DNA of 64,000 bases from a virus (lineage: Duplodnaviria; Heunggongvirae; Uroviricota; Caudoviricetes), in IMG/VR virus record IMGVR_UViG_2684623127_000002; one strand, written 5' to 3'. Shown piece by piece: positions 57,001 through 64,000 of this stretch. Within the stretch, counting starts at the first letter, position 1, and each line of letters opens with the position of its first letter. The position numbers were made by a program.

Positions 57001-60000
57001 TATACCGCCATTACCGCATTGTGCATGGTACTCGGGTCGCGCTGGCATTCCTGCTCACTTTTCTCATTATCCGCCTGTTTACTATCCCGGAAGGCACCTG
57101 GCCGCTGGTCACCATGGTGGTGATTATGGGGCCAATCTCGTTCTGGGGGAACGTTGTCCCTCGTGCCTTCGAACGTATTGGCGGTACGGTGTTGGGGTCG
57201 ATTTTAGGTCTTATCGCTCTGCAACTGGAGTTAATTTCGTTACCGCTGATGTTAGTCTGGTGCGCGGCGGCGATGTTTCTTTGCGGTTGGCTGGCGCTGG
57301 GCAAGAAACCGTATCAAGGATTATTGATTGGGGTGACGCTGGCAATTGTTGTGGGTTCCCCGACAGGTGAAATTGATACGGCGTTATGGCGAAGCGGCGA
57401 TGTGATCCTCGGCTCTTTACTGGCAATGTTGTTTACCGGTATCTGGCCACAACGGGCGTTCATCCACTGGCGCATTCAACTGGCGAAAAGTCTGACCGAG
57501 TATAATCGGGTCTATCAATCTGCATTCTCACCGAACTTACTCGAACGCCCACGTCTGGAAAGCCATCTACAAAAACTCCTGACCGATGCCGTGAAAATGC
57601 GTGGGCTGATTGCGCCCGCCAGCAAAGAAACTCGTATTCCAAAATCGATATATGAAGGTATCCAGACCATTAACCGCAATCTGGTTTGTATGCTGGAGTT
57701 GCAAATCAATGCATACTGGGCCACGCGCCCCAGCCATTTCGTGTTATTGAACGCGCAAAAACTTCGTGATACCCAGCACATGATGCAGCAAATACTGCTG
57801 AGCCTTGTTCATGCGCTGTACGAAGGTAATCCGCAGCCGGTTTTTGCCAATACGGAAAAATTGAACGATGCTGTGGAAGAGCTGCGTCAGTTGCTGAATA
57901 ACCACCATGACCTGAAGGTTGTGGAAACACCAATCTATGGTTATGTGTGGCTGAACATGGAAACGGCACATCAGCTTGAGTTGCTATCGAGTCTGATTTG
58001 CCGGGCCTTGCGCAAATAATTCCTGAACTTCAGAATCATCTTGCTGCTGCTTCGATTCAGCAAGGATAAAGGGTATGATAGTGATAAGGGATAAAAGCAT
58101 TGTCATCTGCGGCAGCTATGAGTAATGTTGGCCCTAACGAATAGCGGTTGCTTAAACGAATCCGACTCTCACATTATCAGGGGTATAAAAATGGAAACTA
58201 CCAAGCCTTCATTCCAGGACGTACTGGAATTTGTTCGTCTGTTCCGTCGTAAGAACAAACTGCAACGTGAAATTCAGGACGTTGAGAAAAAGATCCGTGA
58301 CAACCAGAAGCGCGTCCTGTTGCTGGACAACCTGAGCGATTACATCAAGCCAGGGATGAGCGTTGAAGCAATCCAGGGCATCATCGCCAGCATGAAAGGT
58401 GACTATGAAGATCGCGTTGACGATTACATCATCAAAAATGCCGAGCTCTCCAAAGAACGCCGCGATATCTCCAAAAAGCTGAAAGCTATGGGCGAAATGA
58501 AAAACGGCGAAGCGAAGTAATTCCTGTTTTATTCAATGAGGGTTGCCCGGCAACCCTCATTGCTCATTGATTCTTATCTGTGTATCACCGTCATCATTCT
58601 CATCTGAGAACCTATCGAAATTAGCGGCAGCCTTCTTCTGTATGCAGCAAGGCAAAAAGTTCTGTAACTCCATTGTTATTAACCGCACTGGTTACTAACA
58701 CGTTGTGCGCTCCAGCTTCCCGTAACCAACATTTCACCAAAGATATTTGTTCCATGCTGGCTAAATCTGCTTTGGTTACTACTCCAATGACCGGGTGATT
58801 CATGGCCCGGTAGGGCGTTTTTACCTCTAATTCCTGCTTCAGCGCTGAGATTCCTGCTTGTTGCCGGAAAAGCAGGCACCTGCCGTCTGAACGGTATCGA
58901 TCCGGAAGCGTATCTGCGCCATATTCTGAGCATACTGCCGGAATGGCCCTCCAACCGTGTTGACGAACTCCTGCCATGGAACGTAGTTCTCACCAATAAA
59001 TAAGCGTCAATACGGTGCTCCGTTGACGCTTACTTTAATCCGTTTTCTGAGCTTAGATTTTTCTGTTCCTACCCAGACCGTGGATTTGGAATTCATTTTT
59101 TGTCAGGTCAATGCTAATCGTTAAAACGGCCATAACGCACCTCCACTGGAAGGTTTATCAGTAATATCCTACCGTTGCTTCATGGTCGGGGCGTCCATTC
59201 CATTATTATCGGTTTTCCTTTCTGTTTATAAATGAAAACGCCAGCTGTATTCAGGCTGGCGTCAGGGGAAATGAAGCCTGTTGAGTGAGATTCACCGGTT
59301 CTGGTGCAGAAGCTGCAGATGGCGCAGGGTAAGGGCATCTTCTCTTGCCTGCTTAATACAGGACAACAGTGCTGTTTCTGTGGTTAATGGCACTATACCC
59401 TGCATCACTGCATTGTCTTACAGCAACTGGTGAGGGCTGGCATAAGTTGCCGGTGTTTCGGTAGAGTCACGGTCATCCACCACGCGGAGTGAATAACCGT
59501 TTTCAGCGGCCTTATTAATCAGTTCAGTGATATTAACACCATCAATGTCAACGACAATGTGCCCCATATCCAGCGCCTGTACGTTAACGCTGTCGGCTTC
59601 CAGTGTCATCATTTCGCCTCCGGATACTTACCCAGGGTAATGTTATTTACCGTTCTGTAATTGTCGCGGGTCATCAGGCCGGTCGCCCTGCGAGCCCGGA
59701 GGATATCGATGCTGTTTATTAACTGAGAGCGGGTACAGGCGCTGAATCCCGGCTGGTCGGTAGCACCAGCGCGTATTTTTCCACGAGAAAGTTCACCGCA
59801 TCACACAGTGAAATGCCTGCCTCAATATGCTGCTCAATCACACGTTCATCGGCAAAAGGTGTGTCATTCAGTGTGAGGCCATAGTGCTGGTCCAGCAGTC
59901 GGGACAGCAGTATCTGCCAGATTTCAACAGGAGACGGGCGAGAACTGGCCGCCTGCCCGGGTAATACAGGTAATGTTTTCATACTGAAGATTTTCCTGAT

Positions 60001-63000: not shown

Positions 63001-64000
63001 AGCACAGTTGATTGTCCCCGTATTCAATCATTTGTGCTTTCCCGGTTTTCAGGTTAACTACCGAGACAGTGTAGTCGTAGCACCAGGCACCACCACGTTC
63101 AAGCACGAAAACATAGCTGTTATCTTTATAGTTGAACTGATTCTTTGTCTGGCAATTCATACCGTCAATTTCGGTACAGGAAAACGCTTCTGTAGTATTA
63201 ACGTATTTGATGTTATTTGGCAGTTTTACTTGTTTCGCAGTAGCGAAGACAGAGAACAGAATAGTTACAGCAACGAGTAAAGTTTTGATAAAAGTTTTCA
63301 TGATAGACTCCTTAAATTAGTTAACCGCAGCTACGTAGTTTTTCACCAGATACGCGAATTCATGCACGCCAATTTCACCGAACCAAACCAGGTAGGCCGG
63401 GTCATCTAAACCAAAGTAACGGTAGCCAACAACTTCATGGGTTTTTGGGTTATAGAGTGTTACGATAAAGTCCCAGCCGCAGGTATTGGCTTTGCAACCG
63501 TCGCCCTGGAACCAGACTGTACCGTTAATGTTTACTGGCGTGATACCTCCACCAGGGCCATCCATATAGCCGCCTTTACCGAACATGCCGCTCAGTCCGA
63601 CCGGTTTTAATGCTTTGTCGATAGCGGCTTTGTAGGTAGCGTCACCTTCGTACAACTCGTACGTTGATGGACACGCTCCAGGTTGTTCAGCCCAGGCTTC
63701 CGGGTTACAACTAAGAGCTTGTTTTACGGTAGCCGCTTCTGCGTTAAAGTTAAAGCCCGTGAACAGAACCGCCAGAAATAACATAAGGGTATGTAAACGT
63801 TTCATTGTAAATATTCTTCCGTTGTAAATGGCGCTGGAAAATTTCTCATCAGTGAAACCTTCCGGAAGTTTCCCCCCCTTGTATGATGTATATCGCCAGT
63901 ATTTTATTTCATCCCGGCTGTAATTTTTATATTCCCCGGCACGTGCAATAACGCGGACCAGAGATATAAGGCTCATTAATAACTTTACAGGTAATTTCAT

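Follow-up and report, generated by a model that had tools for sequence, protein, structure and literature searches.

The window analysed here, the 64,000-nucleotide virus record IMGVR_UViG_2684623127_000002 of IMG/VR, contains at its end (positions 58621 to 64000) what is very probably the decayed right arm of a P4-like integrative island, old and without an integrase, that is fixed between cobU and tmaR (yeeX) and in which the type IV toxin gene cbtA was killed by a one-base deletion. Reference annotation already contains the island as well as the frameshift and an antitoxin gene, cbeA, that looks like an orphan, and to that extent the finding is already known: RefSeq, through the Prokaryotic Genome Annotation Pipeline (PGAP), records 'cbtA ... 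frameshifted' beside an intact cbeA, and the annotation of Escherichia coli O157:H7 strain Sakai lists an 87-amino-acid open reading frame (ORF) as yeeV (ECs_2806). What is added here is the exact lesion (loss of G221), its species-wide spread, a map of the erosion of the right arm, an L62P substitution in the CbeA protein of O157 and the opposite decay of a paralogous pair located near the locus of enterocyte effacement (LEE). Annotation in window coordinates is that of the RefSeq/PGAP record of strain EC4115, and domains were assigned with Pfam, complemented by NCBIfam, PADLOC, PDB and Rfam.

A single-base deletion in cbtA

From position 57000 to 64000, the window matches many complete E. 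coli O157:H7 chromosomes at 100% identity, those of EC4115 and TW14359 among them, and from 54747 to 61273 it is 100% identical to that of Sakai, the annotation of which names the element 'phage-like element SpLE2' (ECs_2792-ECs_2808). Gene order is the same as in Sakai, including ECs_2806 (the 87-amino-acid yeeV), ECs_2805 (cbeA), yeeW, a partial ISEc23 and ECs_2808 (118 amino acids), with zero differences in the part compared. The arm occupies the cobU-tmaR interval, the chromosomal site that is taken by CP4-44 in strain K-12, and its run of yeeS, yeeT, cbeA, cbtA, a short yeeW, yoeD and yoeF agrees in synteny with both K-12 and Sakai, at 98.8 to 100% identity; between yeeT and the insertion sequence (IS) fragment of the IS66 family, K-12 differs at only 7 sites in about 1.9 kb. 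To the left of yeeS, however, K-12 carries flu and yeeR, whereas the window has a DUF932 gene, an antirestriction gene and two cargo ORFs instead; homology with K-12 ends at window position 61249, and the K-12 yeeS is 10 amino acids shorter at the junction with yeeR. Neither the EC4115 nor the Sakai annotation lists an integrase at any point of the island (att repeats were not searched for), and for CP4-44, absence of an integrase and inability to excise have been reported (Wen et al. 2017, PMC5371832). The description in the initial annotation, a CP4-44-like cryptic element next to yeeX, is borne out by this shared site and by the same decayed arm in K-12 and in Sakai SpLE2. Two of its genes make up the toxin-antitoxin locus:

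59609..59982, minus strand: cbtA (yeeV) pseudogene with an 87-amino-acid ORF; matches CbtA_toxin positions 1-73 of 112 (E 1e-37); 'frameshifted' in PGAP
60071..60439, minus strand: cbeA (yeeU), type IV antitoxin gene, 122 codons without interruption; matches CbeA_antitoxin (PF06154) positions 1-100 of 101 (E 9e-52)

Aligning the locus to the K-12 reference, as had been suggested together with the original report of a 1-nucleotide frameshift in cbtA, located the lesion: cbtA and yeeW are base-for-base identical to their K-12 counterparts except for a single missing G. The lost base is G221, in codon 74 (CGT, encoding Arg74, becomes C-T), with the gap falling between window positions 59762 and 59763 and the local sequence GTGCGTACC reduced to GTGC-TACC in the deletion allele. 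From there, the frame runs for 14 codons to a TAA at 59719-59721. Loss of this one base would end translation of the toxin gene after 73 native and 14 foreign residues, giving an 87-amino-acid product from which the C-terminal 51 of 124 residues have been removed; a full-length CbtA_toxin (PF06755) protein of ~124 amino acids, as encoded by the intact and experimentally toxic K-12 gene, is absent. The antitoxin gene lies directly upstream on the same strand, separated by an 88-nucleotide spacer (cbeA ends at 60071, and cbtA starts at 59982) that is identical to that of K-12, and its own domain is full length. At the level of ORFs, the toxin gene is thus inactivated and the antitoxin ORF is open, as RefSeq/PGAP records, which supports the toxin decay proposed in the initial annotation. 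The shortened product is most likely nontoxic, and the pair would no longer form a self-contained toxin-antitoxin module.

That the frameshift might be an error of sequencing or assembly, hiding a cbtA that is really intact, has practically no probability. Counting, among 5,426 complete E. coli genomes, the records that have the exact allele as their best match, we found the deletion allele (exact 60-mer) in 1,503 records, from many laboratories and platforms and including Sakai, EC4115 and TW14359, and the intact allele (exact 61-mer) in 1,940. Since the identical allele occurs across many independent assemblies, and since the deleted G within GTGCGTACC is not part of a homopolymer, we consider sequencing error excluded, and resequencing, put forward earlier as a means of restoring the frame, is moot. 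A programmed -1 frameshift in cbtA was considered as well and rejected: upstream of the premature stop there is no slippery heptamer of the form X XXY YYZ, the site is not a homopolymer, and an Rfam scan of positions 58000 to 64000 returned neither a frameshift element nor any other family.

The deletion allele is neither recent nor private to this strain, contrary to what its earlier description as toxin decay might suggest. Its share of the complete E. coli genomes is ~28%, and at least 1,000 public contigs carry a call of the 87-amino-acid product, named 'toxin of the YeeV-YeeU system'. Among carriers other than O157 are Res13, WCHEC000837 and MINF_8D; one comes from pig, one from human urine and one is a Chinese clinical isolate, and in all of them the deletion is at the same locus, with the same neighbors and the same 'frameshifted' annotation. 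When species-representative genomes were scanned, the deletion allele turned up in a Shigella flexneri genome, again within an SpLE2-type island (99.2% identity), and the intact allele in three representatives labelled E. coli and in E. ruysiae. Among the deletion carriers, cbtA is identical and the stretch from yeeW to the IS66 fragment nearly so, but their yeeA, sbmC and dacD haplotypes differ. A single flanking haplotype common to all carriers was therefore not supported, as the flanks form a mosaic and clustering is confined to the island segment. Similarly, the idea that the deletion goes with the SpLE2-type cargo and the intact allele with the flu/yeeR form of K-12 was rejected on account of strain Seattle 1946, which combines SpLE2-type cargo with an intact cbtA.

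One carrier, Res13, gives a relative date. Here, a conversion tract derived from a paralogue of the ykfI/ypjF/LEE type (locus L003, equivalent to window positions 59851-60170) extends from the 3' part of cbeA across the spacer into the 5' part of cbtA; it introduces 32 differences in cbtA, and the G221 deletion downstream of it has been kept. As the tract lies upstream of a retained deletion, the deletion must predate it. Because the carriers share an identical cbtA within mosaic flanks, and because the deletion in Res13 is older than its tract, one origin followed by recombination seems the simplest account, and we favor the view that the deletion is a single old polymorphism that descent and recombination have carried through E. 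coli and Shigella. The frameshift, then, is a real, old and widespread allele, neither a peculiarity of O157 nor an error, and should therefore not be taken for a recent loss of the toxin in this strain. For users of CbtA and CbeA as a model system, this means that a large share of natural strains carries a truncated toxin at the CP4-44 site.

Erosion of the right arm and status of the truncated toxin

Beyond cbtA, the arm consists of fragments, listed here from the backbone side inward:

58621..58803, minus strand: C-terminal remnant (56 amino acids) of an EutP/PduV-family protein (Ras-like GTPase fold); matches PF10662 positions 86-142 of 143 (E 1.7e-12); EutP/PduV family in PGAP
58866..59003, plus strand: C-terminal fragment (45 amino acids) of an IS66-family transposase, K-12 yoeD; matches DDE_Tnp_IS66_C (E 5.3e-16)
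59205..59374, minus strand: 3' end of a DUF957 gene and downstream spacer, recognized by blastn to the SpLE1 and LEE-side arms
59418..59612, minus strand: yeeW, N-terminal domain only (64 amino acids); matches DUF5983_N (E 2e-29)

What has been lost can be read from SpLE1, the serX island of the same Sakai genome, the right arm of which (ECs_1401-ECs_1409) is complete and has the same module order from DUF932 through DUF957. There, the genes for DUF932, the antirestriction protein, RadC/YeeS, DUF987/YeeT, a full-length antitoxin and a full-length toxin are followed by a two-domain DUF5983 gene (163 amino acids), DUF957, DUF4942 and tRNA-serX, at which the arm ends. The SpLE2 arm, by contrast, is eroded. 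Homology to SpLE1 (DNA identity of ~88%) runs through cbtA into the first part of the DUF5983 gene and stops at window position 59473; beyond this point, ~466 nucleotides have been lost relative to SpLE1, with 98 nucleotides in their place, and homology (~84%) returns only for the end of the DUF957 gene and its spacer, at 59374-59205. Since homology to complete arms stops inside DUF5983, yeeW is a truncated gene. In blastn, the DUF957 piece matches SpLE1 at 83.5% (L007 35688-35856, L numbers denoting positions in the loci compared) and the LEE-side arm at 85.9% (L006 7800-7968); PGAP marks a partial hypothetical pseudogene at 59292-59384, which is named DUF957 in other strains. The DUF4942 gene is missing, and a scrap of the IS66 family is found further along. 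Erosion of this end would have cut DUF5983 down to its N-terminal domain (yeeW) and DUF957 to a fragment, and would have left, in place of DUF4942, the IS66-family scrap abutting a truncated EutP/PduV gene.

Both the transposase end fragment and the GTPase remnant noted at the boundary in the initial annotation proved to be real. The former, described by PGAP as a transposase domain without N terminus and in Sakai as repeat_region 'ISEc23 Family: IS66 partial', did not match a full ISEc8 copy in blastn, and it is not a functional IS, as it lacks a complete tnpA, tnpB and DDE transposase. The latter corresponds to the 3' part of K-12 yoeF and also matches NCBIfam TIGR02528 (E 1.6e-10), with a score of 41 bits that is well under the NCBIfam cutoff of 138; it is not a full-length GTPase (~143 amino acids, with P-loop), and no eut or pdu operon context surrounds it in the EC4115 annotation. 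The 118-amino-acid ORF at 58621-58977, annotated as yoeF in K-12 and ECs_2808 in Sakai, is a chimera, in which the last 56 residues are EutP/PduV-like and the first part runs antisense to the IS66 fragment. The limit of the K-12 CP4-44 feature is equivalent to window position 58804, so that the EutP remnant falls on the backbone side, immediately beside the island, whereas the limit annotated for SpLE2 in Sakai reaches yeeX and thus takes in the remnant.

The same eroded right arm accompanies an intact cbtA in K-12, 042, KH_005 and Seattle 1946, and because 042, KH_005 and Seattle 1946 combine the two, the erosion is older than the deletion. The divergence between O157 and other strains jumps at position 58804: island segments show 0 to 4 differences each (adjacent ones 0 to 1), and yeeT is identical in all nine genomes compared, against 5 of 183 nucleotides in the EutP fragment, 9 to 16 of 1,059 in yeeA and up to 13 of 474 in sbmC. 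Likewise, among O157, K-12, 042, Seattle 1946 and others, divergence in the segment 58804-60734 (yeeT through the IS66 fragment) is several-fold lower than in the adjacent backbone genes yeeA, sbmC and dacD (window 54747-58803). Such low divergence, on an eroded arm that the strains have in common, suggests recent species-wide homogenization of the segment.

Some observations weigh against the history proposed here, an old island with a toxin gene that was inactivated once. The several-fold lower divergence of the island than of its flanks is not explained by simple long residence. The single-origin claim, moreover, is based on nine loci and on allele counts. As to the toxin itself, its contact with MreB has been mapped to R15 and that with FtsZ to F65 (Heller et al. 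2017, PMC5624674). The truncated ORF retains both residues, which are located upstream of codon 74. Some C-terminal deletions of YeeV, furthermore, reportedly still gave filamentation or elongation (Tan et al. 2011).

The two residues are ones at which substitution eliminates contact with MreB and FtsZ, and their retention would suit an allele that is not null, either because the 87-amino-acid product keeps partial or altered activity on FtsZ or MreB or because a full-length toxin arises by frameshifting, with cbeA being still needed in cis. The allele is also very common and otherwise unmutated; the absence of further mutations, however, is equally expected of a young neutral allele. Only CbtA_toxin positions 1-73 of 112 remain, and frameshifting would have to occur without a slippery heptamer before the stop and without a homopolymer at the site. 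The intact alleles also speak against an active fragment: the intact CbtA protein is identical in K-12, 042, KH_005 and Seattle 1946, the 2 to 7 DNA differences being synonymous throughout. As all changes among these alleles are synonymous, the full-length toxin is under purifying selection, and since this holds over the whole of cbtA, its C-terminal part is constrained as well. We therefore think it improbable that the allele retains activity. With 51 of 124 residues lost and constraint acting on the whole length of intact alleles, a null allele is most likely. A search of the literature for locus tags ECs2805, ECs2806, Z3162 and Z3163 yielded nothing useful in this respect.

The antitoxin gene and paralogous pairs in O157:H7

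The uninterrupted 122-codon ORF of cbeA agrees with the earlier description of an intact antitoxin gene, albeit with one unusual substitution. Compared to K-12 YeeU (PDB 2H28, E 5e-83), 120 of 122 residues are identical, the differences being L62P and D108G. The former (window position 60255, CTG to CCG) is specific to the O157 lineage, Leu62 being found in all 10 other alleles compared at the locus, in the SpLE1 paralogue and in the YeeU/YfjZ structures 2H28, 2INW, 2JN7 and 2EA9. Only 446 records have the P62 allele (exact 61-mer) as their best match, and the 100% matches among those listed are all O157:H7 or O157-sized genomes. A single-sequence AlphaFold model of O157 CbeA (mean predicted local distance difference test score, 43) was too poor to place residue 62.

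An open cbeA next to a dead cbtA invites the thought that the antitoxin is being maintained. However, the dead cbtA itself has zero substitutions in four of five distinct carrier backgrounds (O157, WCHEC000837, MINF_8D and S. flexneri), and cbeA has accumulated more changes than what is left of cbtA, with L62P in O157 and L53R and V90I in MINF_8D. Because the dead gene has remained unsubstituted, too little mutational time has passed for neutral decay, and an open cbeA is the null expectation; it would stay open mainly since so little mutational time has elapsed after the deletion. Judging from these alleles, the fact that the antitoxin gene is intact while its toxin partner is dead says little about selection and needs no special explanation. 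In KH_005 (L011), cbtA is intact and cbeA carries a premature stop (W19*), PGAP instead calling a 101-amino-acid antitoxin from an internal start.

Selection on cbeA in O157 could nevertheless act through toxins encoded elsewhere, as O157 genomes contain three CbtA-family loci: SpLE2, in which the toxin is dead and the antitoxin open; SpLE1, in which both are full length; and the LEE/selC island. The selC remnant adjacent to the LEE in O157:H7, which is probably the 933L region reported by Perna et al. (1998), carries a paralogous toxin/antitoxin pair followed by DUF5983 and DUF957, as in SpLE2. The direction of decay, though, is reversed. In O157:H7 F1273 (L006 6557-7185), the 124-amino-acid toxin is intact, with 110 of 124 residues identical to CbtA, and the YeeU-family antitoxin beside it has been cut to its C-terminal 53 amino acids by insertion of ISEc31. 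About 360 records have the ISEc31 junction as their best match at ≥99%, the full-length matches among those listed appearing to be O157; in PV15-279, the deletion, P62 and the LEE junction occur together in one genome. A query with yeeR, aimed at the third O157 locus, gave no O157 genome among the matches listed.

In K-12, CbeA, YafW and YfjZ each neutralize CbtA, YkfI and YpjF, and YagB has been pointed to as an orphan antitoxin (Wen et al. 2017, PMC5371832). Like the window cbeA, the YagB gene (in CP4-6) encodes a YeeU-family antitoxin without a working toxin beside it, but YagB has no toxin-like neighbor at all, whereas the toxin remnant in the window is still recognizable and one base away from a functional gene. 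That the toxin inhibits FtsZ and MreB and that the antitoxin counters it by bundling them is known only for the K-12 proteins (PMC5624674, PMC5371832). Because CbeA-family antitoxins cross-neutralize, protection in trans against the LEE-linked toxin is mechanistically plausible, and the SpLE2 CbeA, by acting on FtsZ and MreB rather than on a toxin, may stay useful against the paralogous toxins of SpLE1 and the LEE island.

From this follows the possibility, though an unlikely one, that selection keeps cbeA as a trans-acting orphan antitoxin against the toxins of the LEE island and SpLE1, in which case the retention of SpLE2 would be linked to the LEE. The intact LEE toxin next to a 53-amino-acid stub, the recurrence of that junction together with its joint occurrence with the deletion and P62 in PV15-279, the third, complete pair in SpLE1, and the experimental cross-neutralization and orphan precedent from K-12 all point in this direction. 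On the other hand, SpLE1's own antitoxin could serve instead, other deletion carriers keep cbeA without having the LEE island, and L62P, at an otherwise invariant residue, fits relaxed constraint better than maintained constraint; the unsubstituted cbtA, again, indicates that cbeA has not had long enough to be lost neutrally. A more specific form, which we consider more doubtful still, holds that, with opposite decay on the two islands, the LEE toxin has no check other than the trans-acting antitoxins of SpLE2 and SpLE1, resulting in an addiction-like dependency between unrelated islands that would aid their retention; in a variant of this, the 87-amino-acid CbtA would be an attenuated binder of the cytoskeleton. 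If true, such trans-protection would mean that toxin-antitoxin paralogues link the fates of separate islands, including the LEE virulence island. For the time being, we prefer the reading of cbeA as a gene that has simply had little time to decay.

Remaining genes of the arm and its surroundings

Upstream of cbeA, the arm continues with genes that are, apart from the last two, readily assigned:

60513..60734, minus strand: yeeT (DUF987); matches PF06174 (E 1.9e-39)
60797..61273, minus strand: yeeS, RadC-like JAB protein, full length at 158 amino acids; matches Pfam RadC (E 7e-45)
61288..61767, minus strand: antirestriction protein (yfjX-like; yfjX in Sakai); matches PF03230 (E 1e-35)
61849..62670, minus strand: DUF932 protein (yfjQ-like; yfjQ in Sakai); matches PF06067 (E 4e-52)
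62891..63301, minus strand: ORF for a 136-amino-acid cargo protein with a hydrophobic, signal-peptide-like N terminus; position conserved in other strains
63317..64000, minus strand: 227-amino-acid cargo ORF, in which a signal-peptide-like segment begins at an internal methionine, Met66 (window position 63805)

Strong Pfam matches thereby substantiate every minus-strand gene named at the outset, from yeeW, cbtA and cbeA through yeeT and yeeS to the antirestriction and DUF932 genes. The 136-amino-acid protein had no match in Pfam, NCBIfam, PADLOC or PDB. For the 227-amino-acid ORF, likewise conserved, no Pfam, NCBIfam or PADLOC match was found, and the best PDB match (E 0.8) is not meaningful; a resemblance to the lysozyme inhibitor Ivy, considered because of a CK...C motif, is unsupported, without a match in PDB, Pfam or NCBIfam. 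Searching the island proteins of the window with PADLOC gave zero matches.

Past the end of the window, as seen in EC4115, the island continues up to cobU with patatin-like, RdcB-family and truncated dynamin-like genes, a TonB-dependent receptor gene and IS elements. Beside the DUF932 arm, SpLE2, SpLE1 and Seattle 1946 all have a conserved gene trio, which encodes a dynamin-family GTPase, an RdcB/YjcZ-like protein and a patatin-like phospholipase. The SpLE2 trio is located just past the window (L001 22137-24858) and has a truncated dynamin gene; a complete copy is found at L007 27252-31605. PADLOC matches within the trio were weak (LeoBC, E 9e-6; phospholipase effector, E 6e-6).

On the other side of the arm, in the backbone, EC4115-like genomes carry a lambdoid prophage with nleG7 just past dacD (window positions below ~54000; L001 1-11681), unlike Sakai, in which sbcB directly follows dacD.

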